DNA from: a virus
IMG/VR virus record: IMGVR_UViG_3300022921_001386
DNA length: 64,000 nucleotides
Reading direction: 5' to 3' (one strand)
Part shown: positions 25,961-64,000 of the stretch, piece by piece
How the letters are laid out: each line of letters begins with the position of its first letter
How positions within the stretch are numbered: position 1 is the stretch's first letter
The notes under the pieces: model-generated
Databases searched by the model: none
What the model saw: only the letters and a program-made list of their open reading frames with translations
Told to the model about the DNA's origin: nothing
Translations under genes and position numbers: made by a program

Positions 25961-25988
25961 TATAGACATCCACGTCTATAACTCGGAG
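25961..25988 (+). promoter_or_regulatory. 5'-UTR hairpin / candidate pseudoknot upstream of folE
   Basis: 7-bp stem TATAGAC/GTCTATA, loop ATCCAC; loop TCC is complementary to GGA of the SD. Confidence 0.45.
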
Positions 25989-25994
25989 AAATAA

Positions 25995-31834: not shown

Positions 31835-31842
31835 GTTGGTAC

Positions 31843-31877
31843 ATAATGGGCAGTTTCGGCTGCCCATTATTCTATTT
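31843..31877 (+). terminator. Hairpin terminator with UUCG loop
   Basis: ATAATGGGCAGT-TTCG-GCTGCCCATTAT then TCTATTT. Confidence 0.8.
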
Positions 31878-31882
31878 AAAGG

Positions 31883-31910
31883 TTGACATTAATAGTAAAT
31901 ATGTTATATT
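31883..31910 (+). promoter_or_regulatory. Early-type promoter
   Basis: TTGACA-16 bp-TATATT with extended TG; same flanks as the 30680 promoter. Confidence 0.65.
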
Positions 31911-31940
31911 AAATATATAACACTTATATGAGGTGAGGAC

Positions 31941-40005: not shown

Positions 40006-40021
40006 CACCGTTTCTATCCCA
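39991..40021. terminator. Hairpin at the convergence of the + and - transcription units
   Basis: TGGGATAGA...TCTATCCCA inverted repeat spanning the subtilase stop. Confidence 0.6.
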
Positions 40022-40029
40022 TAAATTGG

Positions 40030-40290
40030 TTATTTCTTAGCTTCTTTTTCAGCTTCAATCACTGCTTGTAATTCCTTGAACAACTCTTCAGCCATTGACA
40101 CTTGACGTAATGCAAATTTATGCGGCAACGCTGGGAAAATGAATGGAAAGAATGCATGTATAAAACCAGTTAATGGAATTAGTAATGAGTGTGATGACAA
40201 CTTAATAGCATACCACATATGCAAAAAATATCCAGACCTTACGTCTTTAAGATGCTCAAAATTTATAATGCTATTTTTAAAAAGGCTCAT
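40030..40290 (-). CDS. DUF6356-like small membrane protein
   Basis: HL.....GYF.H...A....IHAFFPFIF. Confidence 0.7.
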   Translation of the reverse strand: MSLFKNSIINFEHLKDVRSGYFLHMWYAIKLSSHSLLIPLTGFIHAFFPFIFPALPHKFALRQVSMAEELFKELQAVIEAEKEAKK

Positions 40291-40496
40291 TTATGATGCT
40301 CAAATGTTGTGTCTACTAAACTTGCCAATTTCTTTGCTGCATTCATAGATGATGCTTCAAGCACAAATGGAAAGATAGCATGTATTGTACTTGTTATAAA
40401 TACTGCCAATGACCAAAATACCATGTGTGATCCAATTTTAAGATGTCCAAAATATCCAGTGTCAGCCTTTTCGCAGTGTGCAGTTAATGTAGTCAT
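40287..40496 (-). CDS. DUF6356-like small membrane protein
   Basis: AAGGAG RBS; H....TGYFGH...IHAIFPFVL. Confidence 0.75.
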   Translation of the reverse strand: MTTLTAHCEKADTGYFGHLKIGSHMVFWSLAVFITSTIHAIFPFVLEASSMNAAKKLASLVDTTFEHHK

Positions 40497-40525
40497 ATCG
40501 TTCTCCTTATGTTACAATATATCAT

Positions 40526-40533
40526 TATTTATA
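40526..40533 (-). promoter_or_regulatory. T4-like late promoter TATAAATA inside an inverted repeat
   Basis: Exact consensus on the - strand between 9-bp arms at 40508-40516 and 40541-40549. Confidence 0.55.
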
Positions 40534-40566
40534 TTTTTTGTGTAACATATTAAATAGATTTGATTA

Positions 40567-41265
40567 TTATTCAAATCCCCATTTTTTTTCTCGACACCAC
40601 CAACATAATCCACATTCCCTTTTTTCATAAGTAGCAGTAGGATCTACGCACGATTTTGTTAACTTATATAATGATTCCATTAAGTTTTCTTGTTTATAAA
40701 TCTTTGCTATGTCGCGCTTGTTTGTGTTTATCCACGGTTTATACAGAACATTTCCATATATAGTTTTGGATAGTCTTGGCTCAATACAAACATTTCTATA
40801 TTGATCTGCGCCGTTTTCTAACCCGTGCAGGTTCATTTCTTCATTTGGTGGGTTAGCTGTTACTGCATTAACAAATGTTAATATATTATTTTGTTCTCTA
40901 ACTTTCTTAAGAGCCGCCATTAGCTGAAAATATTTTGATAATCCTTCTATTGACGAAAAAGTAAAGTTATCAAATTGATCCTTAGCTTTTTTAAACCAAA
41001 AAGTATCATTAGTGTCAAATCTATATGTTTCGTGCTTTCCTATGTTAGCATCAGGAAATCTTTTACGCATAAATTTTAAAATATCATAAGCACAAAGTAT
41101 GTCTGCAGGATTACATGCATCATCACCTGAAAACGGAACAATATAAGTTTTTGGAAAGTGTTTGCAAATTAAATAAAATAATATTGCAGAATCTAATCCG
41201 CCTGATAACATTAATATAACTTGCTTAGGTGGTCCATCTGGAAAATCATCTTTTGTAAAAATCAT
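40567..41265 (-). CDS. QueC-like PP-loop ATPase
   Basis: LSGGLDS; TKSC...CGLCWWCREK. Confidence 0.8.
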   Translation of the reverse strand: MIFTKDDFPDGPPKQVILMLSGGLDSAILFYLICKHFPKTYIVPFSGDDACNPADILCAYDILKFMRKRFPDANIGKHETYRFDTNDTFWFKKAKDQFDNFTFSSIEGLSKYFQLMAALKKVREQNNILTFVNAVTANPPNEEMNLHGLENGADQYRNVCIEPRLSKTIYGNVLYKPWINTNKRDIAKIYKQENLMESLYKLTKSCVDPTATYEKRECGLCWWCREKKWGFE

Positions 41266-41266
41266 T

Positions 41267-41944
41267 TTAATATCCTATTAAAGATGGTACAATAATATTT
41301 CTATCTAACACTGTAATTTTCATCCAGTTAAATCCGTCTGTTAGTCCATCTTCTATAGATAACTGAAATCTAGAATATTTTTTTATAGACTTTTTAAGTT
41401 CGACCGTATCAAATACAGACCATAGCATGTTATCGTTATTTGTAATATACGAAACTTTATTGCTGCGTATTTTTTTCATTTGTTTTTCTGAAACATCTAT
41501 TGTTCTGTGCGTATTATGAAGTATATCAAATATTTTTTGATTAGATGGATCGATATATGTAAAATATACATATGTAGATATGGTACATAGGTTTTCTACA
41601 CAATAAAGTAGTTCTTCTAAGTTATGATGAGTAAATACACTGTTAGCAAACGAAATATCAAATATTCCAATATTTGGAAATGTTTCTGTTTTACTACCAG
41701 CAGGATTATATATAGAATGGTATCTGTTCCAATAAACTACATTTGCAGCCGGGTGTTCATTTAAAAGAGCATTCAATGAATCCTTACTTACGTCCATACA
41801 AGTATAGTTTTTTTCATGGATTTTGCCGTTGCTATAACTAATTAGATTACCTCGGTTTCCTCCAAAGTCTAATATTTTTTTATTTTTGTAATCAGTTACA
41901 AACTGATCAAATATATTAAACACATTAAGTTTTTTAAATATCAT
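41267..41944 (-). CDS. Class I SAM-dependent methyltransferase
   Basis: ILDFGGNRG, MDVS, FDISFANSVFTH. Confidence 0.75.
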   Translation of the reverse strand: MIFKKLNVFNIFDQFVTDYKNKKILDFGGNRGNLISYSNGKIHEKNYTCMDVSKDSLNALLNEHPAANVVYWNRYHSIYNPAGSKTETFPNIGIFDISFANSVFTHHNLEELLYCVENLCTISTYVYFTYIDPSNQKIFDILHNTHRTIDVSEKQMKKIRSNKVSYITNNDNMLWSVFDTVELKKSIKKYSRFQLSIEDGLTDGFNWMKITVLDRNIIVPSLIGY

Positions 41945-42519
41945 GGTAATATATCTGCTACTAAATGAATACGATCAATATTACTAGCATTTAACGCAGT
42001 ATGATTTCCTTTATCTGTATGAGCAAATGTCCATTGATCTTTTGGTAAATGGTATACTTCATCTTCGATAATCATAAGACAAGCCTCGTTGGTTTGTATT
42101 GGATAATGTATACGAGGAATTGGATCTATATGCCAATTCATACAAGTATACGGTTTTGATTTTAATAGACGCACTCTACCGACAGTGTATTTTGTTTCTA
42201 ATACACAATAGGCGTGATTAAACAATGTGCCTTTAAAAACATCACACAGCTCCCAGTCGTATACTGACTTTGGAGACATTGGTATTCTAACATCTCCTTC
42301 TGGTGTAAGTCTAATAAAGAAATCAGACTTGCCTTTATCTGCAAAGTAACCAGCCCCAAAGCTATAATCATCTGTATAGCCTGGTGCGGCATTTAAACAT
42401 ATCTGTTGAGCGCTGTGTGGATTAGAAGGTTTGAACCATTCTAAATTTAAGTTGTCTAATTCTTCTAACAGACCTTCGACTATCGGTAAGTTTATTGTAT
42501 CATAATGAATCAATGCCAA
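41941..42519 (-). CDS. Aspartyl/asparaginyl beta-hydroxylase-like 2OG-Fe(II) oxygenase
   Basis: RVRLL, CMNWHID, RIHYPIQTN, HTALNAS, RIHLV. Confidence 0.75.
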   Translation of the reverse strand: MALIHYDTINLPIVEGLLEELDNLNLEWFKPSNPHSAQQICLNAAPGYTDDYSFGAGYFADKGKSDFFIRLTPEGDVRIPMSPKSVYDWELCDVFKGTLFNHAYCVLETKYTVGRVRLLKSKPYTCMNWHIDPIPRIHYPIQTNEACLMIIEDEVYHLPKDQWTFAHTDKGNHTALNASNIDRIHLVADILP

Positions 42520-44575
42520 ATAAATCTCCTTCTTTGCCGTTGATTGCTTCTAATACTTCGTCATAACTTTTATCAAAAATTGCTAGTTTAAAAAGTACTC
42601 TTTCATTATATGTTTGTACACTGTGCTCTTCTTGTACATTAAGCAAAGCACCTTCATAATAGACATCGATATCTTCGTTCCAGGATATAGGACTATTCCA
42701 TGTTATAGGACCGTCGCCATCTAGTATTATATTTAAAGCAGTTATTGTTCCATGATCACGATGAGGAGATAGGTAACTATCTCCGTCTTGTATATAATAC
42801 CTAGGAACAGCTTTGCAACCAATAATAGAACTAACATGATTTGCTATACTATTTGCTACGTTACAATTAGACATATCGTCTTGTCTAATCACACGAAGAT
42901 GATCAATGCTTTTTGTTTCGTGCTCGTTGGAAGCAGTAAATACTTTAGCAAGTGACTTGTTTTCATAAAACTCTTTTCTTAATTTAGATTTTAAATCTTG
43001 GTTAACCGATAAGTTTTTCATATATCTTATATTAGGTTCGGGCTTCTTTATTTCTAAAAGGTTTTCAACTTTTGAATAATAAGATTTTTCTAAAAAATGC
43101 CGTGCTTTACGACGAGGCTCGGCACTTGTAAATAATTCAGTAAATGTCATTTTTCTAAGTTCTTCGAATGAATATCCAAGACACTGATAAAACATTAAAA
43201 AGAAGGTAGAAACTTTAATATCATCGATAAAATCTTTTGTAAGTACTTTTACGTATTCAACAGCCTCGTCACTATCCCAATCTTTAGTACGCCATTTGTT
43301 TTGCTTTTCATCATCAGTATATACTGTATAGCCAAACTTTTCTGGATTTTTTGAAAGCTCAGATGCTGTGCCGAGCTCTAATGGGCTAAAAGAAAAAGCA
43401 TCAAACAGATCTTTGTTTTTAATAACATCCTTAGTCCAAACATCCATTGTTTCTTTACTATCATAAGGCAACCCAGCAATAAAGCTACCGTAAACACTTA
43501 ACGATCCATCAAATACTTCTCGAGATTTTCTGATTGTTTCAAAAATTGTTGCGCTAGGACAACCCTTTCCGATTGTCTTGGCTGACTCATAATTCAACGA
43601 TTCAACACCGAGAAACCAAGAACACACATTGATTTTTTTAAGTAGTTCTAGTTGCTCTGGCCATTTTGCTACAAGATCAATACGTATAAATGCCGAAAAC
43701 TGTAGTTGTTCTGGTAGATTAATTTCTTCTATGGCATCTGCAATAGCTTGTAGCTTAACAGTCTGCTCATTAAATGTATCATCGATAATTATATACTTTG
43801 TAGTGCCATATAACTCATAGTTTTGTTTTAATTCGTGTTTGATACATTCTTTATCTCTTAAAAAAGATTGATCGCCTTTTTTCTTTCCTATCAATGGATA
43901 AGCACAAAACTTACATTTAAAAATGCATCCACGGCCAAATTCGATACCCATAGCTTCTTCCGCACTCCAAAAGTCCTCTGGAATATAGTTTACTTTTGTA
44001 TTTCTAAAATCAAATAACGCTCCTTTTTGATCATAATCAAATATATAGGGAGTAGTTCCGAGATTGGCATTATAGTTAAGATCTGTACCATTTTTTAAGT
44101 GATTAGTAATATTTAATGCAGTATGTTCGCCCATTCCAACTACATAATAATCTATTTCATTTTTAACTTCTTCGGCTCGATGATATGACATACTGCCGCC
44201 GTATACAGTTTTTACACCTTTGGTATATCGAATATAATCAGTCATTTTTCTAATATCTTCGTCTTCAGTAGGCCAGCGCCAAAGAATATTTTTTTTATTA
44301 GTATCTCGTGTATGTCGTTTGGTATATACTTCGTTACTCTTTCTCATAAACAACGAAGAACTAAATCCAACCCATAGTGTGTTATCACCGATTAACTTGT
44401 CAAGAATTTGTTTAATCATTCCGTTTTTAATCCAATGTGAAAAGTTATTTAATACAAAAACACTATATCCTTCATTGCGTAAAGCAGATGCAATTTTATA
44501 GCCGCCGATTCCCCGTGCTACATTAAATACCGGGTCGCTGCCTTCAGTCATGATTATAACATCATATGTTTTCAT
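42500..44575 (-). CDS. Cobalamin-binding (class B-type) radical SAM enzyme fused to a C-terminal cupin/oxygenase domain
   Basis: WVGFSS, YGG, VVGMGE; GRGCIFKCKFC; DDTFN, GVES, FIAGLP; C-terminal PHRD...ALN...HSV...RVL. Confidence 0.82.
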   Translation of the reverse strand: MKTYDVIIMTEGSDPVFNVARGIGGYKIASALRNEGYSVFVLNNFSHWIKNGMIKQILDKLIGDNTLWVGFSSSLFMRKSNEVYTKRHTRDTNKKNILWRWPTEDEDIRKMTDYIRYTKGVKTVYGGSMSYHRAEEVKNEIDYYVVGMGEHTALNITNHLKNGTDLNYNANLGTTPYIFDYDQKGALFDFRNTKVNYIPEDFWSAEEAMGIEFGRGCIFKCKFCAYPLIGKKKGDQSFLRDKECIKHELKQNYELYGTTKYIIIDDTFNEQTVKLQAIADAIEEINLPEQLQFSAFIRIDLVAKWPEQLELLKKINVCSWFLGVESLNYESAKTIGKGCPSATIFETIRKSREVFDGSLSVYGSFIAGLPYDSKETMDVWTKDVIKNKDLFDAFSFSPLELGTASELSKNPEKFGYTVYTDDEKQNKWRTKDWDSDEAVEYVKVLTKDFIDDIKVSTFFLMFYQCLGYSFEELRKMTFTELFTSAEPRRKARHFLEKSYYSKVENLLEIKKPEPNIRYMKNLSVNQDLKSKLRKEFYENKSLAKVFTASNEHETKSIDHLRVIRQDDMSNCNVANSIANHVSSIIGCKAVPRYYIQDGDSYLSPHRDHGTITALNIILDGDGPITWNSPISWNEDIDVYYEGALLNVQEEHSVQTYNERVLFKLAIFDKSYDEVLEAINGKEGDLFGIDSL

Positions 44576-44576
44576 A

Positions 44577-45344
44577 TTATCCTTTCCTTGGATTATTAAA
44601 GTCTACTGGAGTGCCGTTTCTTCCAATGTAGAATAATATTCCGTCTTGTTCTATTACTTGATCTTGTGTATTAAACCAGTTGTCCCCATATACAGATATA
44701 TCACCTTTTACTAATAATCTATTTTCTTTGTCTATCTTATAATCACAGTTAAATATATTACCGAGTACAGTAGAGTTAGCAGGCGTAATATCTTTAAGTG
44801 CATACACTTCTTCTATGTTATTAAATATATGCATAATGGCATTTACTCCAACTTCGGTCATTCCCCATATACATATTACTCGAGCACCTCGATTGATAAA
44901 ACCTTCAATAATATCATACGTGACGGGCTCAGATCCTACTAAAAATGTTTTGCCGGTTAAGTCAAGTGTTTTAAATCCCTTTGTTAACATAACACCCTTT
45001 GCTTGCTTTGGGGTTAAATGTGTATGAGTATATCTATCTGCTACTTTAGTATATTTATATAGATTAAATTTATCAAAGTTAACTGTTGCACCAGCTATCA
45101 ATCCTGGAATAGATTGGGCAAACAATCCTCCAGCACGCTCTAAACTTAAACAAGTGTATATAGAACTATGCACATTAATATCCTGAACTTGGATTGCACA
45201 TTTGGCATCTGCTACTATTTTACTTGGGGGCTGATATATCTCTTTTGGAACTCCGGATGTACCCGATGTTTTAATAGTTATGCCATTTACAATAATATGT
45301 TCTAATTTATCAATCAAAGTAATGAAATCCAAACTCTTGGTCAA
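44577..45344 (-). CDS. Minimal AMP-dependent (ANL family) adenylate-forming enzyme
   Basis: TSGTSGVPK, VGSEP, WGMTE, WFNTQD, IGR; no C-terminal domain. Confidence 0.8.
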   Translation of the reverse strand: MTKSLDFITLIDKLEHIIVNGITIKTSGTSGVPKEIYQPPSKIVADAKCAIQVQDINVHSSIYTCLSLERAGGLFAQSIPGLIAGATVNFDKFNLYKYTKVADRYTHTHLTPKQAKGVMLTKGFKTLDLTGKTFLVGSEPVTYDIIEGFINRGARVICIWGMTEVGVNAIMHIFNNIEEVYALKDITPANSTVLGNIFNCDYKIDKENRLLVKGDISVYGDNWFNTQDQVIEQDGILFYIGRNGTPVDFNNPRKG

Positions 45345-46497
45345 CGTATTTTAAAACGTGATGACCCATGAACCGTTCAGTAATAGTTTTAAACATTTCG
45401 TCGTTTTGCCCTTTTACATATCGTTTCAATACATCAGTCTTTTCTATACGTTCAGCAGATGTTTTCTTTGCCCAGTCCCAAAATTCGTTTTTGTATATAG
45501 AGCCTCCATGATAGATTAAGTTAATTAAATCTTCTACTGCACGATAGTTTAAAATACATAGCTCGTTTGCTCGAGAGCCGTTAATTTCGCCTCGTATATA
45601 ATCAGAAAGTATTTGACAGTTTTTAACAGCCATATACAACGAATTTGCACTCATTGGTTCAAAGAACACTGCACAGTTTCCATTTTTTAATAAACGTTGG
45701 TCAACTGTCTTCTTACAATAATATGGTTTTAAATCAAATGTACGGAAGTTTTTTGTATCTGCATCTGTTGCATCTGTGATACGAATAAGTTCCTTTTCAG
45801 CTTCTTCACGTGTACAAAACTCACTGTTGTACAGGAAGCCATGAGATGTCCTATGTTGTAATGGAATAACAAACATCCATCCATACTTATGAGCAACATG
45901 ACGTGTGAATCCAAAATCAGATGGTGTTGGATCATCATATACCAAAGCAGAGTTTAGAACAAGGTTACATTCATTGTAATCAGTAAAATCTGTCGGTCTA
46001 CCTCGACAATCGATAATATAATCAAATATGTGCAGTTTTCCGTCTACGGTTAGTTCGCCGCCTCTTGATTCGTTAGTATAATCAGTAAAACTTTGCGATA
46101 CTCTTTCTACGTTACCGTGTAATACAGTATAACTATTATATAATTTTTTTAAGCGTTCCATGCCCATTTTAACAAAATCTTTTGCATCAAAATGGATAGC
46201 ATGATATCCTGATTGAAAAGGAAAAATAATATCTTTCTCTCTCCAATCAATGTAATGTGTGCCGTACTTAGTTGTGCTGTTGAGTTCTTTTGCTTCTGTT
46301 GCAAATATGAAATCAAATGCCTGACCAATAGCAAAGGTTACTTCTGACGTTGTACTCTCACCTACTCCGAGGATAGGCTTACTTGGATCATATACATGGG
46401 TAAGCTCTAACTCAATTTCACGATTTTTAAAATCTTTAAGTAAACAGCCTGCAGTTAATACCCCTGCACTTCCAGCACCTAATATAGCAATCTTCAT
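45310..46497 (-). CDS. Flavin-dependent (tryptophan halogenase-like) enzyme
   Basis: GAGSAG, GVGEST, STTKYG, IDCRG, GWMFVIPL, FFEPM. Confidence 0.85.
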   Translation of the reverse strand: MKIAILGAGSAGVLTAGCLLKDFKNREIELELTHVYDPSKPILGVGESTTSEVTFAIGQAFDFIFATEAKELNSTTKYGTHYIDWREKDIIFPFQSGYHAIHFDAKDFVKMGMERLKKLYNSYTVLHGNVERVSQSFTDYTNESRGGELTVDGKLHIFDYIIDCRGRPTDFTDYNECNLVLNSALVYDDPTPSDFGFTRHVAHKYGWMFVIPLQHRTSHGFLYNSEFCTREEAEKELIRITDATDADTKNFRTFDLKPYYCKKTVDQRLLKNGNCAVFFEPMSANSLYMAVKNCQILSDYIRGEINGSRANELCILNYRAVEDLINLIYHGGSIYKNEFWDWAKKTSAERIEKTDVLKRYVKGQNDEMFKTITERFMGHHVLKYVDQEFGFHYFD

Positions 46498-47013
46498 TTA
46501 AATCTCCGGGTTTATCTTACAATATTCTTTTATATTTAGTTTCCATATATTTTGTTCGGTATCAAAAACCTTTTGACACCCTAGATGTTCTACTATTTGT
46601 TTTTTTTCAAGTATGTGATAAAGTTTGTTTAACTTTAACATTTTGCCGCTGTGGTCAGTTTCGGTATTAGTTGTTATGTATATAGGCTTATTGCTGTACA
46701 TATTAATTACTATAGGCAAGTGATAGCGAAACATCCAACAATTCATATGATTCTTACTTAATCCGCCAGGAATTGAATAAAGTTGACATCCTCTAAATAA
46801 TGCTCGTATACCGTTGAGGAATGGATGTACTCCGCTTATGCCAACAATTTTAGTATTATGAAAAGTGGCGAACCAGTTTCCGCCAATACGTAATGTGTTA
46901 TTAAATTTCATAGACTCTAGGCTATTGTTATTATTGTAATTCATCCTATCACATTCATTAATGAATTCTAATAACTGCAAGGTAGGTTTAGATATAATCC
47001 TTGTTTCTATCAC
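46498..47013 (-). CDS. GNAT-like hypothetical protein
   Basis: WFATFHNTKIVGISGVH, RALFR, IYITTN. Confidence 0.45.
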   Translation of the reverse strand: MIETRIISKPTLQLLEFINECDRMNYNNNNSLESMKFNNTLRIGGNWFATFHNTKIVGISGVHPFLNGIRALFRGCQLYSIPGGLSKNHMNCWMFRYHLPIVINMYSNKPIYITTNTETDHSGKMLKLNKLYHILEKKQIVEHLGCQKVFDTEQNIWKLNIKEYCKINPEI

Positions 47014-48257
47014 GAAAATACCATTTCTAAATCTTTGTAAACAGTTGTACTTCCAAACATAGCAGGCAATAGCTCAGGCTGTCTTGTAATCTCAAACGTA
47101 TCAAATCTATCTAATAATGCATTTGTAATAATTTCTAAAAAATGCTTAACAAGAAAATCACCTGTACAATGATGCGGGCCATATGCAAGTGTTACCGGCA
47201 ACGGTTCGTTATCTCTTTCAAGTCTAAATACTAACGGATCTTTATAATATTTTGGATCTCGATTGGCACCATATGTATATAACAAAATGCGGCCGCCTCC
47301 ATCAAACTTATAACCATGAAATACTGTATCGTCAACAATATCTCGTACGCCGCCCTTTAAAGGTGCTAATCGTAAACTTTCTCTAGCAAATGCAGAAACT
47401 AAAGACCTATCTTCTTTTATACGTTTAACAATATCTGGATATTTACAAAAGTTCATTAAAATGTTCTGATATAAACTTAACGAAAATGTAGGAATAACCA
47501 CTGTCCATAAAGACTGAATAAACATATACGCCATTAGTTTAGGATTATCGTTATATTCAGATTGTTTGTCGTTGAGGTTTTTAGTCATATTAATCATAGT
47601 ATCGTAATCTTTATCATTGTTATGATAATATTCTATTGCTTCGTTAACTATACGAGAGAACATACTATAAAACTCAGTAGTCTCTGATACAGGCTTATCG
47701 TAATCAAAGTCCGGATTAAAGTTTGAAAATACATTTCCAGGACGCATCCACTTATGAAATCCGTCTTTTACATAATCTTCAGTAACATCCAATGCATCCC
47801 ACGGAAACTCAATTGATTGAACTTGGGTATCTGTTACTGTTTTGCCTATGACATCGTATGCTTTAAATGGAACGCCCTTTTTAATCGAGTCAAGATCTTT
47901 ATATAAGTTATCTGTAAAGATTTTTGTAAAATCGCCTGCTCGACGTTTAATCCAATCTAAACTATGTTTTTTAGCAAGGTGGTGATGCGGACCTTCACGA
48001 AGTGTCAACGCATATCCTGCTCTCCAAACACCTCCAAGAGGAGTAGGATCAAATGGTGCTGGAGATGTTTTTGCAAGACTGAATCTATCATTCATTTTAG
48101 ATGCCTCTTTAAGGCGATCCATCGAAAAGATAATCCAATGTTTATATACTGGGTGCCAAAAGAAGCCGCGTTCTTCGTTTTTAAAACAAAATGTTATGTG
48201 TTCGTCCATTTTGTATAAGAAATCAGGATTAACAATTTCAAAATCAATTTTCCTCAT
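47010..48257 (-). CDS. Cytochrome P450
   Basis: EGPHH (C-helix), ESLR (ExxR), ANRDP.YY.DP..F...R, AYGPHHCTG (heme Cys); 415 aa. Confidence 0.88.
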   Translation of the reverse strand: MRKIDFEIVNPDFLYKMDEHITFCFKNEERGFFWHPVYKHWIIFSMDRLKEASKMNDRFSLAKTSPAPFDPTPLGGVWRAGYALTLREGPHHHLAKKHSLDWIKRRAGDFTKIFTDNLYKDLDSIKKGVPFKAYDVIGKTVTDTQVQSIEFPWDALDVTEDYVKDGFHKWMRPGNVFSNFNPDFDYDKPVSETTEFYSMFSRIVNEAIEYYHNNDKDYDTMINMTKNLNDKQSEYNDNPKLMAYMFIQSLWTVVIPTFSLSLYQNILMNFCKYPDIVKRIKEDRSLVSAFARESLRLAPLKGGVRDIVDDTVFHGYKFDGGGRILLYTYGANRDPKYYKDPLVFRLERDNEPLPVTLAYGPHHCTGDFLVKHFLEIITNALLDRFDTFEITRQPELLPAMFGSTTVYKDLEMVFS

Positions 48258-49369: not shown

Positions 49370-49374
49370 ATTTT

Positions 49375-49403
49375 ATTATACCATATTATTAGCAATAAGT
49401 CAA
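49375..49403 (-). promoter_or_regulatory. Sigma70-type promoter, possibly leaderless
   Basis: TTGACT-17 bp-TATAAT on the - strand; ATG follows after 5 nt with no SD. Confidence 0.7.
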
Positions 49404-50617: not shown

Positions 50618-50635
50618 TTAATAAAATTCCAAATG

Positions 50636-56588: not shown

Positions 56589-57135
56589 ACCAGTTCTCCG
56601 ATTGCATCGGATCAATGCTTAATTCGTTGATGTTTAAATGCTTAGGCTGATCAACTATCCATTTTATATACTCAGCAGCTAGATTAATATCCATAGTTTT
56701 TCTGTCTGGATGCTTTGCTTGATTGTTATCAAGTGTTCCGAGACTGATGTAACTTATTTTAGGGCCGCTTGCCCATATGCCAGTAAGCCCTAACGTATTG
56801 CTATAATCACGCAATGCTTTCTTTTCAGCATTGTATAACCATGCTCCGCCTTTTTTAACTCTATCAGTAGTACTGCCTATGTTGATAATATGACATTGGT
56901 GATTTTCAAGTATACATTTTTTATAAACAATATCAAGTAAACTGGTTTGATTGAATCTAAACAGCGCACTACAGTTGATAAACACATCATGATGTATCAC
57001 TGCTTCGGCACATCTTTCCATATCAACTTTTTTACCAAAGTCGTAACCGGTACTTCTACTAATAAACTCTGCATCGGGATAAATCTTTGCTAATGCTCCA
57101 GCTACACCTGTGTCTTTGTTACCCGTTATGATCAT
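56581..57135 (-). CDS. Short-chain dehydrogenase/reductase (compact)
   Basis: IITG...GV..AL, FINCSA, IINIGS, YNAEK (YxxxK). Confidence 0.8.
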   Translation of the reverse strand: MIITGNKDTGVAGALAKIYPDAEFISRSTGYDFGKKVDMERCAEAVIHHDVFINCSALFRFNQTSLLDIVYKKCILENHQCHIINIGSTTDRVKKGGAWLYNAEKKALRDYSNTLGLTGIWASGPKISYISLGTLDNNQAKHPDRKTMDINLAAEYIKWIVDQPKHLNINELSIDPMQSENWYA

Positions 57136-58273
57136 CTAATACTCCTATGTCTATGTGATTATTTAATACGTTTAATAGTTTGTCTGTTTGCATACTCTTA
57201 GGAGCACATAATCCACATCCACATGTTTGCTTTGGACAAACAATAGTAGGCATTGTTCCAGTTTGCATTTGTTTTCTCAAATCATCTACTAGTTTTTTAC
57301 CTTCACTTATTTTTCCTATTGCGCCGCGTGTGCCATTAAACTTTGCTTGACATGTTTGATGATGAAATACTTGGTCAGTTTGTTGTTCTAAATGCAAGAA
57401 GAACCAGTTAACACTGCATTTCCACCCTTTGAACTCTCTAAAATCTACAAATGTACTTTTACGTTTTTCTGTGCCGCTGTGTAACATCATGTCTCTACTA
57501 CCACAACAAGGACGTCCTATACTACTTCCTAGTTTTTTTGCATTTTTTACAACATCACCTACTGCACTACTAGCATATAGTGCATCATTTTTTTGCCTCC
57601 AATAGTTTTTCATCCACGCTAGTTGTTCTTCATTGTACTGATGAGCAAAGCTAGGTTTGCTATCTGGCTCTTCGCCAATAACTCGCGGAACAAAATCAAC
57701 ACCATGCTGTTGTAAAAACTCGCATAGCTCTTTGCACTCATCAAAATATTCTGCGTGAAACATAACATTTACACTAACTGTACACTCGTACATATCACCT
57801 TGATAATGCAACTGTAATATTCTATCTTTTACTTGCTGTTTGAGTTTGCCATCGCTTTCACTGTGATAGCTGATAGTAGCATGACAGAAGTTTTCCATTA
57901 TTGCTTGGCCCATTTTTTCACTAAATGCGCCATTGCTTGTAAGAGCAAAATCAGCTATCCACTTGTCTTGATATTTTGCTTCGTATTCTTCTTTTAGATA
58001 TTTTGCAAAAGGAATAAAATGTGGATTAACTGTGGGCTCGCCGCCTGTAAATCCTACATTTGCTTCTTTGAAGTTGCGATGCTCCATGTATACATCAATG
58101 TATTCAAACAGAAAATCTACGTTGGCTTTTAGTTCATCTAACGTAGCATGTTTACTAAAGTTGTCGTGCCTGTGGATTGGGCAATAACTACAATCATAGT
58201 TGCACCGTCTTCCAAGATCCCATGTTACTTGAAACAACTTTCCAGTTAACAAATCAATAGTATCAAAACTCAT
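57119..58273 (-). CDS. Radical SAM protein (WDLGRRC subtype), paralog of 50636
   Basis: WDLGRRCNYDCSYC, TGGEPT, RPCCG, HQTC, CPKQTCGCGLC. Confidence 0.9.
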   Translation of the reverse strand: MSFDTIDLLTGKLFQVTWDLGRRCNYDCSYCPIHRHDNFSKHATLDELKANVDFLFEYIDVYMEHRNFKEANVGFTGGEPTVNPHFIPFAKYLKEEYEAKYQDKWIADFALTSNGAFSEKMGQAIMENFCHATISYHSESDGKLKQQVKDRILQLHYQGDMYECTVSVNVMFHAEYFDECKELCEFLQQHGVDFVPRVIGEEPDSKPSFAHQYNEEQLAWMKNYWRQKNDALYASSAVGDVVKNAKKLGSSIGRPCCGSRDMMLHSGTEKRKSTFVDFREFKGWKCSVNWFFLHLEQQTDQVFHHQTCQAKFNGTRGAIGKISEGKKLVDDLRKQMQTGTMPTIVCPKQTCGCGLCAPKSMQTDKLLNVLNNHIDIGVLDDHNG

Positions 58274-59096
58274 TTATTTCCTCAATGACAGATTTTACTT
58301 GTTTGTCTGCCCAATCTCTTTCTTCACACCACCAACACTGTTTGCATTCTGGTATATACATTCCTGCATTGTAATCTCTAAAATGCCCGCAAGACTCTTT
58401 TATATTTTCCATATGATTTATATCGCCTTCACAACTACGTGTTGTGTTGTACAAATCTAATATATTATGTATGTGGTATTGTGCTACAATCCAATCTTTT
58501 TTTACAAATCTAAAAGGATGGACAAATGTTGATTTTACTTTTCCGCTGTAAAACCATAAATCAGTTAGTTGTCCATCTTCGGCATCTTTGTCTCTATTGG
58601 TCATACGGTCTTCACGCAAGTCATCTGGATTCTTACTTGTAGCATTATATACTGCATCCAAGTTGTATTCCCATGCTGCAAACTTGTTGTAACTTCCTAC
58701 TATAATCTGATCGCCACTCTTGCCGTTGATACTTGCTCCTATTACACCGTGTTCTATTTCAGGCGGAATATATGTTGTGTATCTATTTTCAATAATATAA
58801 GGAAACATGTCTTTTAGTTTGTCAAATACTTGTAAACTAATATAGCCTTGCCAAGGTCTTGTTTCCCAACAACGTTGGTATGTAATAACATCTACTTTTG
58901 TAGTTAGATTGTTGCGTTGTATGATTGTACACAATAAATATGTTAGCAATGCACTATCGGCACCACCAGAAAGATTAATGCCAATACGCTGCCATTTTTC
59001 ATCAAACGGAATAGTTAACTTACTAAAAGTTGTAAGCAGTATATCATTAGAAATATTTTTATATAACGAGTTGTTTGTATCAAACATTTCGTACAA
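58263..59096 (-). CDS. QueC-like PP-loop ATPase, paralog of 51882
   Basis: LSGGADS; TRSCE...CKQCWWCEER. Confidence 0.8.
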   Translation of the reverse strand: MYEMFDTNNSLYKNISNDILLTTFSKLTIPFDEKWQRIGINLSGGADSALLTYLLCTIIQRNNLTTKVDVITYQRCWETRPWQGYISLQVFDKLKDMFPYIIENRYTTYIPPEIEHGVIGASINGKSGDQIIVGSYNKFAAWEYNLDAVYNATSKNPDDLREDRMTNRDKDAEDGQLTDLWFYSGKVKSTFVHPFRFVKKDWIVAQYHIHNILDLYNTTRSCEGDINHMENIKESCGHFRDYNAGMYIPECKQCWWCEERDWADKQVKSVIEEINEF

Positions 59097-60414
59097 CTTC
59101 TCCGTTTACAAACTTGTAGTTTTCAATATGTTCATTGAAATCTTGTTTCCATATTTTATCTGTTTTTTCGATATACTTCATAAAATCAGTCCAATCAGAT
59201 TTTTTTGCATCGTAGTTTAGAATATATTTCCTTATGTATTCAAGCCCGGCAACTGCACTGGTGATATCTTGCCACATGTCATAGGGCTTTTCTATTCCAA
59301 CAGTAAAATGACTTTTTAACATCCTAGACGAATCTACGTTCTCTCTTCTTTTTTTGTCTACACCAAATATAGCATTACGTGTTTCTTCGATATCATTTAA
59401 TATAGAATTTCTATGCTTCAACAACATCACACTTGGATTTAGATAATCAGGTGTATACACTATACTAACATTAATATAGTTGATGTCAAGTTCTAAAAAA
59501 CTAAGAAATGAATCTTTTATTTCCATAAGCTGATATGTTCCTGTAGTATAGACTACATTAATGTCGCAATGATTATTGTCAACTTGTTTAAAACGATTTA
59601 TATTTTCTTTTAGCTTTTGCCAATCACCTTGTCTAAAATATGGATATAGTCTAGGACCTGCATCTAAACTTATTTGAATGTTTACATCACCAAATAAGTT
59701 TAATAATCTGCTCAACTCAACTGCATCAAAGTCTGCATTGAAGTTGCTATGAAAAATGATTTTCATATTTTCAGCGTTGGGATGATCGCCAAGTTTAGCT
59801 AATGTAGGAAAGAACTGTTTTTGGTACAACACTTCGCCGCCGGCAAAATCTACTCTTTCAAGGTTTGGAAAGTTGGTGTTAAGATCTTCAACTATTTCTA
59901 AAGCACGAGCTGTGCTAATACTTATAGTGTAATCATCATCTGCATCCTGTCGATGCATTTGTCCAGTTAGCTGTATTAGATTGTGTTTATAATCTTCGTC
60001 GTCAGGTGTGTATTTTTTTAACTTGGACATCCAACCGCTGCTGAATACTTGACTACAATGCAAACAACTCATATTACAACTATGACTGAAACGCATTTCG
60101 ATTGTTTTCAATCCTTCAAATGCTGTTTCACCAGTTTCGTGATTATAATATTGTAAATCAACACCTTGTTCTTGACGCATACTCTTGCCTGCATTTGCTT
60201 GTTCAACATGCTCGCACATATTACAACCTTTGCACCAAGTTCCGCTCATTAGTTTTTTACGATGATTTTTAAAGTTTTCATTATTGAAAAACTTGCTTGG
60301 CAGGTATTCCTCATCTAGCATTTGAAACTTTTCGTGTTGTGTAGGACAACTGGTTACAAATCCATTTTTAAAGTTGATTCCGCTTATAGCATAATAGCAA
60401 TCTAAACTAGCCAA
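59080..60414 (-). CDS. Radical SAM protein with N-terminal twitch-like domain
   Basis: TTG start; CNMC...SMR; CNMSCLHC; AGGEV. Confidence 0.88.
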   Translation of the reverse strand: MASLDCYYAISGINFKNGFVTSCPTQHEKFQMLDEEYLPSKFFNNENFKNHRKKLMSGTWCKGCNMCEHVEQANAGKSMRQEQGVDLQYYNHETGETAFEGLKTIEMRFSHSCNMSCLHCSQVFSSGWMSKLKKYTPDDEDYKHNLIQLTGQMHRQDADDDYTISISTARALEIVEDLNTNFPNLERVDFAGGEVLYQKQFFPTLAKLGDHPNAENMKIIFHSNFNADFDAVELSRLLNLFGDVNIQISLDAGPRLYPYFRQGDWQKLKENINRFKQVDNNHCDINVVYTTGTYQLMEIKDSFLSFLELDINYINVSIVYTPDYLNPSVMLLKHRNSILNDIEETRNAIFGVDKKRRENVDSSRMLKSHFTVGIEKPYDMWQDITSAVAGLEYIRKYILNYDAKKSDWTDFMKYIEKTDKIWKQDFNEHIENYKFVNGEVVRNV

Positions 60415-61282
60415 TGATTTTCTCCCATAGACTTTGCTTTGATATATCTAACAAAAATCCTTGTGCATTATTTTTACCCCATTCTTTTTCTTGACAGAAA
60501 AAACAGGTTCCGCATTCTGGAGGATATTTTGTTTTATAATCTTTTTCTATTTCAACTAAACTAATTTCGCAACTTCGTGTTAACTTTAATAAATCATCTA
60601 GTCTATAGTTAATGTACTGTGCCATTGTATAGTTTTTTCTAAGAAGTCCAAATGGATTAATGCAGGACCCTGTAATAACCCAATCCCAGTTATCCTTAAC
60701 AACTGTTTCATCTCGAAACTCAGGAGCCTGATCATTGTCTATTGGGGGATTCATAGTTGTTCCGCTATATACCCATTCGTAGTTATAAGATTTTATTAAA
60801 TATTCCTGATAACTATGTGTTATTAACACATCGCATTTTGCCATTGAAGGTAATGTCAAGTTGGGTAGATTTAGATTTTTTAAAGGCACAGTTTCAAATT
60901 CGTGTGGCAAGAATCCCCAATGCTGCATACCAATGATATTTGGAAACTGTTTTTTTAGATATCCGAATGCATCTTCTGCCATTGGTTTTAGCCAAGGCTT
61001 TTGTTCCCAAAAACGTACCATTGTATATACATCTATTTTTGTTTTGAGGTTTTCTCTTTTAATAAGTGTACACAACATATAAAGTAATAAACTACTGTCG
61101 GCGCCGCCGCTAAATGCTACTAATATTTTTTTTGCATGGTTATCAAGATGTATAGGCAGACCGTTTATCCTGTATACATTAGGATATCTGCGAGGGTATT
61201 GCGTTTTTTCATACTGCTCAATAAAATCTTGTTTTTTATAATGCAGTTCTAAGTAATCTAAATACTTAAAATCATCCATCAA
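60407..61282 (-). CDS. QueC-like PP-loop ATPase
   Basis: FSGGADS; TRSCE...CGTCFFCQEK. Confidence 0.8.
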   Translation of the reverse strand: MMDDFKYLDYLELHYKKQDFIEQYEKTQYPRRYPNVYRINGLPIHLDNHAKKILVAFSGGADSSLLLYMLCTLIKRENLKTKIDVYTMVRFWEQKPWLKPMAEDAFGYLKKQFPNIIGMQHWGFLPHEFETVPLKNLNLPNLTLPSMAKCDVLITHSYQEYLIKSYNYEWVYSGTTMNPPIDNDQAPEFRDETVVKDNWDWVITGSCINPFGLLRKNYTMAQYINYRLDDLLKLTRSCEISLVEIEKDYKTKYPPECGTCFFCQEKEWGKNNAQGFLLDISKQSLWEKIIG

Positions 61283-62669
61283 AAATATCTTTCATCTCAG
61301 GGAATGTTTTAGCAAATGTAATACCACGTTGTTTGTCGCATAGGTTTATAAACTCTTGCATTTCCGGCAAGCGTCTGCTCCAGTCCTCTGATTCCATAAA
61401 CTGTAGCATACCTTTAAGACGTTTTATACCATAGGGCGCTGCATCAAACATTGCTTTAGTTACTTTGCCCTTGTGCCAGCTAGGTATGCCAAGTTCCCAG
61501 TTAGCTTCCCACCAAGGATAAAACTCTTCGTACTTTTTGCGTACTTCTGCTTTGAACCATTCTGGCAATACTTTAACATTTAGGTGCGGTGGATGGTATA
61601 CAAAGTGATAGTTTACTCCGCCTGCACCGAATGGCCACATATTAATCTTTTTAAATTTTTGTTCTAGTTTCCAACGAATAAAATCTGGTATGTAATATAT
61701 GTTTAATGCTTGTACTGCACATGCTACAGTGATTTCTACATTGTTACTTGTTTCGTTGTCAAGTATATGAAATACTTCTTCTTGACGTTTCCAGTTACTT
61801 GGATAACGAATATAGTCATTCATCTCGTGTATACTATCTATTGAGTAATGAAAACGAACTACTTTAAACTCTTTCCATAGGTCAAACAAATCATCACGCC
61901 ATTCAACGCCATTTGAGTTGTAGCGTAGTTCTAGATCTTTTGCATAGCCCATTTTAATAGCATGTTCAAGTATTTCGTAATGTTCTTCAATAATAAGACT
62001 TTCGCCGCCGGCAAAATAAATCTGTTGCATACTACCCATTTGATCATAGAACTGTTGCCAAAATACAGGATTTTGTTTGTGCCAGTTGTAGCTACTACCA
62101 TTGGTGCTACCTTTGTCTTGCCACTGCATTGTCTCTTTGAGACTTTCGTTTTTTACTTCAGGAAAGATTGATTTATAATCTTTAATCCAGCCACTACTAT
62201 CATGCGGACTACACATAACACAAGCAAGCTGACATTTGGTGCCAAAGCGTAAATCAATGTATGCTAAGTTAGGCGGTACTTCGCCATCTTCTGTAGTATC
62301 AGCAATCAGTTTGTCAACATCAGTACGCTGACTCCAATATGCTGTTTCCCACATACGTTTGCTATTATGTCCTGCTGCTTCTTCTCTGTAGCACTTTAAA
62401 CAACTTGGAGGCTTTTCGCCATTCATCATCTGCTTGCGTACATTTTTCATATACTTGCTGTTCCACGCAGTTTGAAAATCTGTTACATTTAGGTTGTTTG
62501 GTTTGCCGTCATCTGTTTTAAGAATGCCAACTTGGCCGCCATGCTCTTTATCATTAGTAGCACCTACACTACTAGCGTTTGCTGTACAGCATACTCTCAT
62601 ACTGCCATCTGGTCTTGTACTTAGGTGTACCCACGGAAGAATACAAAAGGTGTCACTTACTTTGCTCAT
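61272..62669 (-). CDS. Radical SAM protein with N-terminal twitch-like domain
   Basis: CILPW, VCC, CLKC; CQLACVMC; AGGES; SIDS. Confidence 0.9.
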   Translation of the reverse strand: MSKVSDTFCILPWVHLSTRPDGSMRVCCTANASSVGATNDKEHGGQVGILKTDDGKPNNLNVTDFQTAWNSKYMKNVRKQMMNGEKPPSCLKCYREEAAGHNSKRMWETAYWSQRTDVDKLIADTTEDGEVPPNLAYIDLRFGTKCQLACVMCSPHDSSGWIKDYKSIFPEVKNESLKETMQWQDKGSTNGSSYNWHKQNPVFWQQFYDQMGSMQQIYFAGGESLIIEEHYEILEHAIKMGYAKDLELRYNSNGVEWRDDLFDLWKEFKVVRFHYSIDSIHEMNDYIRYPSNWKRQEEVFHILDNETSNNVEITVACAVQALNIYYIPDFIRWKLEQKFKKINMWPFGAGGVNYHFVYHPPHLNVKVLPEWFKAEVRKKYEEFYPWWEANWELGIPSWHKGKVTKAMFDAAPYGIKRLKGMLQFMESEDWSRRLPEMQEFINLCDKQRGITFAKTFPEMKDIFDG

Positions 62670-63730
62670 ACTGTACTTATGCCTTTATCTGCGTAGTTTA
62701 TTTCATTATGATATGCTTTATTTTTTGCACATGTTCTAATACATCTACTGAGATGTAATGGATGATTTGGTTGCCAACTTGCTGTTAATAAATCTTTATA
62801 CCAAGGGTGTTGCATTATTTCTTCTTTGCTGTGTAACAGTAAACTATTCCAGCCAGGTTCAAATCTGTTTAGTTTCTGCATTATATCTTCTCTGTTTTTA
62901 AATGCACTATCCCATAGAAAACAACACGGCCACATAGTTTGATCACTTGCTATAAATATTTCACCTTCATGGATATACTTACATATAATACTGTCAACTA
63001 CTTCTTTAGTTTTTTCGGCATCAGCTTTATGAGATTTATACTCAGTAATAAACTTATCCAAGTCTTTCATTATATCTTTTTTACTATGCTCTTTACTGCC
63101 TGTGGTTGTAATAACTTTTTGTTCCGTTTGTTTTTTAGTTTTTATTTTTGCAACCCAATCGTGATAACTATTACGCATTCCAGTACGTGTAGCAAAATCA
63201 AATCCTAATACTGCGGCATGTGCTCTAGCAGTAACTAGTTCTTGCTCATTGTGATCAAAAACTATGTAGATCCATGTAGCATGACGTTGTGGTGCTGCTT
63301 CAGAAAATGCTATAATGTTGCGTTCTACAACACTCCATTTGGTGTTTACCCTATATATATGATTGGTGTTTTTGTGTCCGTCAATACAAAAATGTATATG
63401 CAACTTTCCTATATAAGTTGATGCAAGATCGCCTAGTTGTTTCCACCATGCTGCGGTATTATATCCACCGTTGGTACTATACTCACAATATGCACCTTGG
63501 CTAAGAAGGTATTCTGTCATAGCCAAACAATCAGGATTAACAATAGGATCTCCAAGAACTCCGCAAAACTTGAACTCTACTCCATTGTAATCTGCAGGAG
63601 GAAAAATACGTTGCAAATCTTGCAACGTAAATGCGTTTATTTGCAACAATTCTTTGTTGAGTGTTCTTGCACACCCTGGACAAGCTGCATTACAATCGCT
63701 GGTTATTTCTAGTTCGACTTTTTTAATCAT
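62666..63730 (-). CDS. Radical SAM protein with C-terminal SPASM/twitch domain
   Basis: Start re-assigned to MIKKVELE; CNAACPGC; GDP; STNG; PCC...CIRTC. Confidence 0.9.
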   Translation of the reverse strand: MIKKVELEITSDCNAACPGCARTLNKELLQINAFTLQDLQRIFPPADYNGVEFKFCGVLGDPIVNPDCLAMTEYLLSQGAYCEYSTNGGYNTAAWWKQLGDLASTYIGKLHIHFCIDGHKNTNHIYRVNTKWSVVERNIIAFSEAAPQRHATWIYIVFDHNEQELVTARAHAAVLGFDFATRTGMRNSYHDWVAKIKTKKQTEQKVITTTGSKEHSKKDIMKDLDKFITEYKSHKADAEKTKEVVDSIICKYIHEGEIFIASDQTMWPCCFLWDSAFKNREDIMQKLNRFEPGWNSLLLHSKEEIMQHPWYKDLLTASWQPNHPLHLSRCIRTCAKNKAYHNEINYADKGISTV

Positions 63731-64000
63731 ATTAAATCCACTAACTCTGGAAAGGTTTCTACAAAGTCGGTGTTCCTTTTTTGATCCCACATTTCTATTG
63801 TTTTTTTAAAGTTACGACGAAGGTTAGGATTATCATCTCTAATGTGTAGATAATCAAACAATCGATGATTTTTTTGTAGTTGTTGTAGTTTGTTGTTTGC
63901 AACGTTTATTTGTTGATCATTTAGTAGTACTGGAGTATATGCAGTTGGACCGTGCCACGGTAATAACATCCAGTTGTTCATATCAATGTCATTGTCAATA
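63727..64000 (-). CDS. C-terminal part of a probable further radical SAM protein (truncated by the window edge)
   Basis: Ends WDQKRNTDFVETFPEL, like the D..R...F...FPE C-termini of neighbouring rSAM genes. Confidence 0.6.
   Translation of the reverse strand, partial: IDNDIDMNNWMLLPWHGPTAYTPVLLNDQQINVANNKLQQLQKNHRLFDYLHIRDDNPNLRRNFKKTIEMWDQKRNTDFVETFPELVDLI

Follow-up and report, generated by a model that had tools for sequence, protein, structure and literature searches.

The window analysed here is a stretch of 64,000 nucleotides (nt) of the virus record IMGVR_UViG_3300022921_001386, in which positions 40030-64000 are occupied by an island rich in radical S-adenosylmethionine (SAM) enzymes (rSAMs) and QueC-like ATPases. 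It comprises 24 open reading frames (ORFs), named g01 to g24, g24 being cut by the window edge. All 24 lie on the minus strand, and neighbouring ORFs mostly overlap by 1-43 nt or are spaced by 0-30 nt, the sole larger gap (276 nt) falling before g01, in agreement with the co-oriented, mostly overlapping run reported in a preliminary description of this DNA. The island adjoins, and converges on, tail-fibre-like and protease genes, a position that had been noted there as well. At 40 kb the G+C content changes from ~0.39 to ~0.33 and both skews flip sign, as expected from the strand switch. The rSAM and QueC-like genes are listed below, with lengths in amino acids (aa); positions beyond the window are given on the locus L086, to which 58896 is added to obtain window coordinates.

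63727-64000, minus: g24, C-terminal part of a 391-aa N-twitch rSAM (full gene at L086:4831-6006); Pfam SPASM at residues 11-73, then Radical_SAM
62666-63790, minus: g23, fam1 rSAM, core followed by a C-terminal Cys-rich domain PCC...CxxxC; CxxxCxxC; NCBIfam SPASM-type maturase models at 3.5e-10
61272-62669, minus: g22, N-twitch rSAM, the most conserved gene of the island; Pfam SPASM at 9-94, rSAM at 142-305
60407-61282, minus: g21, QueC-fold PP-loop ATPase; SGGADS and ECxxCxxC
59080-60414, minus: g20, N-twitch rSAM, fused elsewhere to a g19 orthologue (fusions P0121-P0123); NF033640 at 193 bits
58263-59096, minus: g19, QueC-fold PP-loop ATPase; structural model with pLDDT 92 and structural matches
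57119-58273, minus: g18, Cys-rich rSAM of the CNYxCSYC class; motif and family scans
55443-56615, minus: g16, N-twitch rSAM; NF033640 at 238 bits
54103-55485, minus: g15, N-twitch rSAM; NF033640 at 379 bits; N-terminal Cys 23, 41, 42, 93 and 96, core Cys 150, 154 and 157
49400-54110, minus: g14 to g11, inserted extra unit of an N-twitch rSAM, the QueC-like g13, the CNY rSAM g12 and an N-twitch rSAM; identity elsewhere at paralogue level
48254-49369, minus: g10, rSAM closing the conserved module (fam7); Pfam and NCBIfam; terminal position in 47 loci
42500-44575, minus: g05, B12-binding rSAM of class B type; Pfam and NCBIfam
40567-41265, minus: g02, with 232 aa the shortest of the QueC-fold PP-loop ATPases; matches Pfam QueC (34 bits) over the C-terminal Zn region only

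Radical SAM and QueC-like enzymes

The CxxxCxxC motif was found in 11 complete proteins (g05, g10, g11, g12, g14, g15, g16, g18, g20, g22 and g23), so that the 11 complete rSAMs counted earlier, one of them cobalamin-type, are backed by motif, Pfam and NCBIfam, and the partial twelfth (g24) was followed into the full contig. Ten of these 11 matched Pfam PF04055 at an E value of 1e-6 or better and g23 only at 6e-3; g14 (29.3 bits) and g23 (17 bits) remained under the PF04055 gathering score, and NCBIfam rSAM models back both. Six are N-twitch enzymes (g11, g14, g15, g16, g20 and g22), to which g24 is added. In g15, g22 and g24 an N-terminal Pfam SPASM match places the auxiliary Cys domain before the rSAM core, and the Cys at g15 positions 23, 41, 93 and 96, upstream of the core Cys, are conserved in 8/8 N-twitch paralogues. 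The curated NCBIfam model NF033640 (N_Twi_rSAM, cut-off 170 bits) was scanned against g11, g14, g15, g16 and g20 (not g22 or g24): g15, g16 and g20 scored above the cut-off, while g14 (154 bits) and g11 (138 bits) matched over the full length under it. To our knowledge, no member of NF033640 has a known reaction. Compared with this family in general, up to eight paralogues are present here per operon, and one lineage carries a fusion to a QueC-like ATPase.

The Cys-rich CNYxCSYC class contains g12 and g18 (39% mutual identity) with g10 as a more distant member; g23 represents fam1, which is present in 76 of 82 loci with invariant Cys in its alignment. The remaining enzyme, g05, is a B12-rSAM (B12-binding domain at 24 bits, below the gathering score, and rSAM at 56 bits) that matched 13 B12-rSAM NCBIfam models, the best at 1e-17 and all far under equivalog cut-offs. 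With mutual identities of 20-39%, the island paralogues are old; for g15 alone, 1246 homologues were found, with more than 120 clusters at 60-91% identity. We also noticed a further rSAM gene outside the island, at 20105-21034 on the plus strand (PF04055, 3e-9), within a sugar-nucleotide gene block.

All four proposed QueC-like ATPases (g02, g13, g19 and g21) share SGGxDS and a C-terminal SC...ECxxCxxC. Across 40 QueC-like sequences S-G-G-x-D, C222, C254 and C257 were invariant and C251 was present in 90% or more; the family also keeps PF(x)4K, has a spacer before CxxCxxC longer than C(x)8 and carries an N-terminal extension of 25-40 aa. The structures closest to the g19 model were QueC (3bl5, Z 14.4, 187 aligned, root-mean-square deviation 3.7; 2pg3, Z 14.1), Cap9 (13.1) and QatC (12.2), with TilS and NcsA following within 1.5-2 Z, while a profile of the family searched against the sequences of the PDB recovered the PP-loop motif only. 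SGGxDS, PF(x)4K and the four-Cys C-terminal metal site are thus held in common with QueC, Cap9 and QatC (PF06508, PMC13329287), which are also the top structural matches.

On the contrary, the substrate motifs of canonical QueC (YxQxHxxE, VPxRN and YPDC), of which YxQxHxxE and YPDC are kept in Cap9 (PMC13329287), are not preserved. Neither YxQxHxxE nor YPDC is found in g02, g13, g19 or g21, which show only an (S/T)xxNP that may correspond to the RN of VPxRN, and the QueC-like proteins score 24 bits against TIGR00364, whose cut-off is 150. As YxQxHxxE and YPDC are missing while SGGxDS, PF(x)4K and the Cys4 site are kept, a role as preQ0 synthase is ruled out at the motif level, and we predict that the four proteins are QueC-fold adenylating enzymes. 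Presumably, their chemistry is the same in kind as in the QueC family, that is, carboxylate adenylation followed by amine attack. Unlike QueC, Cap9 and QatC, the island proteins are almost confined to phages and always paired with rSAM enzymes, and the functional clusters that were mapped in 2026 do not include their clade.

The genes are arranged in a repeating unit, an N-twitch rSAM followed by a QueC-like ATPase and, optionally, by a CNY rSAM, which is present in three copies in the window. Moreover, three fused proteins (P0121-P0123, 826-842 aa) join an orthologue of g20 (46-51% identity), a KE-rich linker of ~150 aa and an orthologue of g19 (44-47%); P0122, which is located in an array of 11 rSAMs, was recovered from 24 contigs, with a Tara Oceans assembly among their sources. 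This Rosetta-stone fusion into one chain suggests that g20-type and g19-type enzymes act together, and it provides a single-polypeptide entry for biochemistry.

Extent, conservation and composite structure

As had been supposed, the operon continues past the window end: it reaches ~68852 in window coordinates, giving ~29 kb and 13 rSAMs. The upstream genes on L086 are, in order, the complete g24 (391 aa), a second fam1 rSAM, a 74-aa protein, a fam5 protein of 347 aa and a fam4 protein of 547 aa. We also considered mis-assembly. An identity look-up with g22 returned contigs of 43-171 kb from four samples and a further look-up added a fifth; over 12.7 kb, contigs from at least five samples or assemblies match the window with identities of at least 99.9%. 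Since near-identical DNA (at least 99.9%) is present in at least five independent assemblies, the island is not mis-assembled and a chimeric assembly is excluded.

Using a profile built from the four PP-loop proteins, we found the QueC-like family encoded in 259 IMG/VR loci, with one weak match in 185,579 bacterial and archaeal species genomes. In 50,697 deposited phage genomes we found nothing close at the DNA level and no QueC-like protein; matches to g15 there did not exceed 26% identity and were limited to jumbo phages of Vibrio and Ralstonia and a marine single-cell virus record. An exact-pattern search of IMG/VR for the window end and a single-protein locus search with g13 gave no matches. 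Gene families were then compared in 80 fetched loci of the 259 (82 in some counts). Most of the 80 keep one order: fam4 (1-3 copies), fam5, the 74-aa protein, two fam1 rSAMs, an N-twitch rSAM, an optional QueC-like gene, an N-twitch rSAM (g20), a QueC-like gene (g19), an optional N-twitch rSAM, a CNY rSAM (g18), an SDR (short-chain dehydrogenase/reductase) or fam16, two N-twitch rSAMs and a g10-like terminal gene. Median identities to the window genes were 80% for g22 (80 loci), 79% for g17 (34 loci), 64% for g18 (75 loci), 58% for g23, 52% for g15 and 51% for g10, the latter reaching 94% in other loci.

The genes g11-g14 behave differently, with median identities of 22-39% in other loci, which is the paralogue level, and L001 as nearest locus; as only such matches are found elsewhere, g14-g11 are an insertion specific to the window phage. 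The genes g01-g09 are rare, none being shared by more than a handful of the 80 loci (g09 in 2/80). The island therefore has three layers: a conserved core (fam4, the methyltransferase, the 74-aa protein, g24-g15 and g10), the inserted unit g14-g11 and the rare arm g09-g01. It is thus not one indivisible cluster and, given how rarely the arm is shared among loci, a common product is unproven for g01-g09. The other genes of the window island are these:

56581-57135, minus: g17, short SDR; TGxxxGxG and YxxxK, by motif and Pfam/NCBIfam
47010-48257, minus: g09, divergent P450 of the variable arm; PF00067 at 48 bits, heme loop with Cys
46498-47013, minus: g08, 171-aa protein without Pfam or NCBIfam match; homologue in the minimal cassette of relatives
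45310-46497, minus: g07, PF04820 flavoprotein; Pfam 4.5e-31, 109 bits; GxGxxG present (residue 7), WxWxIP absent
44577-45344, minus: g06, N-domain only of an ANL adenylation enzyme, 255 aa; AMP-binding at 42 bits, ANL C-domain absent
41941-42519, minus: g04, AspH-like cupin/2-oxoglutarate (2OG)-type oxygenase; PF05118 Asp_Arg_Hydrox at 25 bits, above cut-off
41267-41944, minus: g03, class I methyltransferase-like; Methyltransf_12 at 28.7 bits, slightly short of the cut-off; the minimal cassette has a homologue
40030-40290, minus: g01, small DUF6356 protein (Pfam) with one hydrophobic segment

The P450, SDR and 2OG-type oxygenase of the preliminary description are thus present, and its methyltransferase has a family match in g03 with a score just short of the cut-off. 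Its ANL adenylating enzyme survives as an AMP-binding N-terminal part and not as a complete enzyme. The flavin halogenase is not supported, as g07 has PF04820 and GxGxxG and lacks WxWxIP, and the GNAT-like gene, presumably g08, has no family match. No nonribosomal peptide synthetase, polyketide synthase or transporter was found in the island, as stated before, and g01 is the only window island gene with a hydrophobic segment.

Relatives also show a second module architecture and a minimal cassette; the latter consists of a B12-rSAM, methyltransferases, an N-twitch rSAM, a g02-like QueC-like gene, a fam1 rSAM and a g08-like gene, and adjoins a tail-fibre gene. On this evidence the island consists of a conserved core with additions that can be exchanged. 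In the minimal cassette of a ~257-kb related phage contig we observed a TctA-family transporter subunit (L168:11114-12403, Pfam 2e-57); considered as a clue to a carboxylate substrate, it was dropped, being present in one phage type only. CheckV completeness was 59-77% for related records of 217-275 kb (those behind L067, L124 and L162), which implies that genomes of this T4-like lineage are of jumbo-phage size, ~350 kb. A lineage recovered from many marine and estuarine metagenomes thus devotes about a tenth of its genome to oxygen-sensitive radical enzymes.

We also looked for known systems of this kind. The host recognition cluster (HRC) is a hypervariable island in the structural region of marine T4-like phages, for which glycosyltransferases and rSAM cassettes were listed and no chemistry was proposed (PMC7029224). 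Like the HRC of pelagimyophages and cyanomyophages, our island is variable and lies beside tail-fibre-like and protease genes; the HRC is defined by its location between VrlC and gp14, and the likeness drawn here is one of fibre adjacency and variability alone. The uncultured window phage is also a larger, salt-marsh or estuarine relative (~350 kb implied by CheckV). A marine T4-like environmental viral genome, TARA_ERS488813_N000010, was reported to carry 12 rSAM genes, in a discussion that also dealt with genes for Fe-S assembly in phages (Nishimura 2017, PMC5332604); this similar dozen was reported only as a count of Fe-S proteins, and we liken it by description. The claim of an undescribed system can therefore be kept in part: no characterised phage rSAM/QueC-like system or phage cluster for ribosomally synthesised peptides with post-translational modifications (RiPPs) of such type was found in the literature, whereas rSAM arrays in marine T4-like phages had already been noted (PMC5332604, PMC7029224). 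New here are the rSAM-QueC-like fusion, the motif-level exclusion of preQ0 synthase, a 61% bacterial homologue of g22 beside family 2 glycosyltransferase (GT2) genes, and the three-layer anatomy.

Substrate of the island enzymes

In bacteria, N_Twi_rSAM proteins above the cut-off were found in 26 of 121 genomes sampled from the phylum of a Bdellovibrionales metagenome-assembled genome (MAG), often as arrays, and in 0/14 control genomes. In that MAG (GCA_020435025.1), homologues of g22 (61%), g15 (42%), g17 (39%) and fam1 (43% and 32%) lie beside four GT2 genes, and another N-twitch copy is found with GT2, Epimerase_2, GH113, AspH-like, NAD-epimerase and AMP-binding genes. The complete chromosome CP003537.1 carries an array of 10 rSAMs of these same families with an APH-type kinase, NTP_transf_3, GDSL, GT2, nitroreductase and NAD-epimerase genes; the nitroreductase gene adjoining the array is at L188:6707-7315. 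No deazapurine genes and no small-ORF match were seen in the bacterial array contexts examined. The sole bacterial QueC-like relative, which is g02-like, lies between an acyl-CoA dehydrogenase and an MBOAT O-acyltransferase. Bdellovibrio-type arrays may offer a culturable genetic model.

Twitch/SPASM or B12 rSAMs such as BtrN, DesII, AprD4, BlsE and GenK oxidise, deaminate, dehydrate, decarboxylate or C-methylate sugars, and are encoded near glycosyltransferases and SDRs. Those bacterial sugar pathways use one or two rSAMs and no QueC-like partner, while the island has 13 rSAMs with QueC-like partners. The island enzymes showed no significant specific similarity to the five proteins, BlsE alone appearing at E values of 1.6e-3 to 8.9e-3 (NCBIfam). 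The window phage also encodes PMM, a UDP-sugar dehydrogenase, an epimerase and a GT-B-like protein (a weak match, below cut-off).

The head of the operon is relevant in this respect. The fam4 protein has a conserved DxD and falls in virus-only "GT2-like" clusters of the ESM Atlas. In the fam5 model (pLDDT 93) a helical repeat precedes a class I SAM methyltransferase, with small-molecule enzymes as best matches, and profile or sequence searches of fam5 against PDB sequences gave nothing useful.

The analysis establishes which genes are present, how the operon is built and conserved, the fusion of rSAM with QueC-like proteins, the QueC fold and the bacterial neighbourhoods, whereas the class of substrate, what each step does chemically and the eventual target, be it the virion fibre or the host envelope, are inferred. 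Our favoured reading, which we hold tentatively and with a little less than even confidence, is a sugar or glycan tailoring operon in a tail-fibre host recognition cluster, in which the rSAM/QueC-like units provide repeated editing and amidation steps. It is preferred because of the GT-A-like genes at the operon head and of the sugar-gene context of the bacterial homologues. The hypermodification of a macromolecule proposed earlier (proteins, glycans, DNA or envelope) would thus lean towards sugars and glycans, the other targets remaining as alternatives.

In such a pathway, soluble enzymes would make and edit an unusual sugar-type unit, nucleotide-activated or already attached, in the infected cell, and the GT-A-like transferases would attach it. 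The methyltransferase, the SDR and up to 13 rSAMs would edit it by C-H chemistry, oxidising or epimerising, dehydrating and, through the B12 enzyme, C-methylating it, with SAM likely supplied by the phage MetK. Each QueC-fold ATPase would pair with its upstream N-twitch rSAM and adenylate a carboxyl or carbonyl, whose replacement by an amine would give an amide or amidine. The number of units (1-4 in relatives) and the variable arm (P450, PF04820 flavoprotein, cupin, methyltransferase and ANL fragment) could then diversify the product between phages. If the sugar reading is true, the island represents a rich source of new carbohydrate-editing enzymes, modular in build and minable at little cost, and a new route for phages to change their own or the host surface. 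A bolder idea, speculative and in our opinion unlikely, is that the N-twitch rSAM and QueC-fold pair is a new two-cofactor unit combining radical C-H activation with ATP-driven amide or amidine formation, 1-4 copies of which, shuffled beside tail-fibre genes, write a strain-specific code on the surface glycan or the fibres and so set host range or exclude competitors.

Several points weigh against a sugar substrate. No island enzyme has a characterised orthologue, all matches being at the level of superfamilies or uncharacterised families, and guilt by association cannot name a substrate. The glycosyltransferase assignment of fam4 consists of a sub-threshold Pfam match, the DxD and automatic cluster names, and a profile search of fam4 against PDB sequences returned nothing. 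Inside the island there is no sugar-nucleotide synthesis gene, flippase, polymerase or ligase. The bacterial contig with 61% identity belongs to a MAG and might itself stem from a phage. Of the 26 N_Twi_rSAM-bearing Bdellovibrionota genomes, 25 lack QueC-like genes, so the bacterial context says little on the QueC-like half, which is therefore a phage-side addition. Finally, the conserved 74-aa core protein would fit a peptide substrate, and a linkage with FolE and QueE would fit a nucleobase.

The first of these alternatives, to which we give a low but appreciable probability, is a RiPP-like or protein hypermodification, in which rSAMs and QueC-like ligases modify the 74-aa protein or a fibre protein with cross-links and amide conjugates. 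In 47 of 82 loci the 74-aa protein (L086:7075-7299) keeps its place within the module, and 20 of its residues, with many aromatic, Asn or His among them, are invariant. QueC-family enzymes do modify proteins, Cap9 and QatC forming amide conjugates at protein N-termini (PMC13329287), and both rank high among the structural matches of g19; tail-fibre genes adjoin the island, and the weak best NCBIfam matches of g16 and g18 include the peptide maturases PapB, YhhB, XyeB and CcpM. Those matches, however, span the generic rSAM core only. The 74-aa protein itself is conserved over its full length like a folded three-helix protein, with no Cys and no leader/core split, has no ESM Atlas match, is absent from the second and minimal architectures and shifts position in three loci. 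The proposed scan beyond the window for a precursor peptide or a RiPP recognition element (RRE) did yield this conserved, though not universal, ORF; a Pfam scan of the island including the upstream genes detected no RRE/PqqD domain in any gene. In addition, the bacterial homologues lie among sugar genes with no small-ORF match.

Compared with the sugar reading, a nucleobase or DNA hypermodification also seems doubtful, and we rate it slightly below modification of a protein. Here the QueC-like enzymes would join 7-carboxy-7-deazaguanine (made by FolE, QueD and QueE) or a related purine or pterin carboxylate to amines, and rSAMs would elaborate the base, which would end in phage DNA or in a nucleotide product. 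The relevant genes are consecutive at 23958-27619 on the plus strand:

23958-25046, plus: MetK (SAM synthetase), as proposed earlier; three S-AdoMet_synt domains, E values of 1e-34 to 1e-58
25995-27619, plus: FolE and a QueE-like rSAM; FolE at 3e-38, QueE-like at 2.5e-13, below curated cut-offs

FolE and the QueE-like rSAM thus directly follow MetK. FolE was present in 5/5 and QueE-like in 15/24 of the island-bearing contigs, and 8 of 13 large QueE-bearing contigs carry a QueC-like gene; yet this co-occurrence may reflect only shared ancestry within one phage lineage, and FolE and QueE lie at least 13 kb away, on the opposite strand and in a different block. No Pfam QueC was found in the five largest island-bearing contigs and no canonical QueC among the cluster genes scanned. 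QueC is the best structural match of g19, and two enzymes acting on nucleotides, MoaA and viperin, appear among the best NCBIfam matches of g10 and g12; against this, YxQxHxxE and YPDC are missing in all four QueC-like proteins. A supposed DpdA (515 aa, 12246-13793) had no Pfam, NCBIfam or PDB-sequence match, a QueD-like candidate (14102-14668) had no family or PDB-sequence match, and the ORF at 18831-20108 gave nothing useful in a PDB-sequence search. The bacterial array contexts, as mentioned, are devoid of deazapurine genes.

That the island lacks a single pathway and a common product, and hosts independently exchanged cassettes acting on unrelated substrates, is quite improbable. In favour of this view, g01-g09 are confined to few of 80 loci, g11-g14 to the window phage and L001, three module architectures and a minimal cassette exist, and one relative has a TctA transporter instead. 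Against it, a core of ~15 genes keeps its order at 50-80% identity over dozens of loci, the overlaps between genes resemble those of a single operon, two of the core genes are found as a fusion, and four core families travel together in bacteria also.

Transcription and neighbouring genes

In four salt-marsh metatranscriptome runs, assembled contigs span nearly the whole of 38001-58000 at no less than 99%. Strand, level and absence of DNA carry-over are not readable from such RNA-library contigs, and bins of low cover (e.g., 40669-41335 and 52008-52674) are meaningless; the contigs are compatible with expression of the island without proving it. Contigs of two of the libraries (X1 and X3) depart from the window sequence at 41489 and rejoin it at 41674, inside g03, which suggests a co-occurring strain with a replaced segment in this methyltransferase gene.

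As to transcription signals, sigma-70-like sites and terminators were at the level of shuffled sequence, and the T4 late promoter motif TATAAATA was not enriched (8 found versus 9 expected). As these motifs are at chance level, no timing can be inferred. One site is listed as a lead only, the whole sigma-70 scan not exceeding the shuffled expectation:

49375-49403, minus: sigma-70-like promoter TTGACT-17-TATAAT with TG, in the only intergenic gap of the core; 11/12 match

Beyond the operon, L086:10001-14620 (window ~68897-73516, plus strand) holds a divergent unit of a 482-aa protein, an ANL protein of 352 aa, a PF04820 flavoprotein of 498 aa and a 195-aa protein. This second, full-length PF04820 protein (Pfam 3.5e-71) has GxGxxG at residue 7 and no WxWxIP, as seen for g07. 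Past this unit the genes return to the minus strand, in a block that includes a further rSAM and a second fam4 gene; the four-gene unit separates this block from the island, while in other phages the two are contiguous.

Elsewhere in the window, 1746-4409 (plus) encodes an 887-aa protein with a Pfam Annexin repeat at residues 707-752 (E 1e-5, just above cut-off). At 30749-33233 (plus), an AAA ATPase (phrog_1297) is followed by a DUF2201 metallopeptidase/VWA-like protein (HNH endonuclease in PHROGs), a pair that looks like the CobS/CobT-like pair common in marine myophages.

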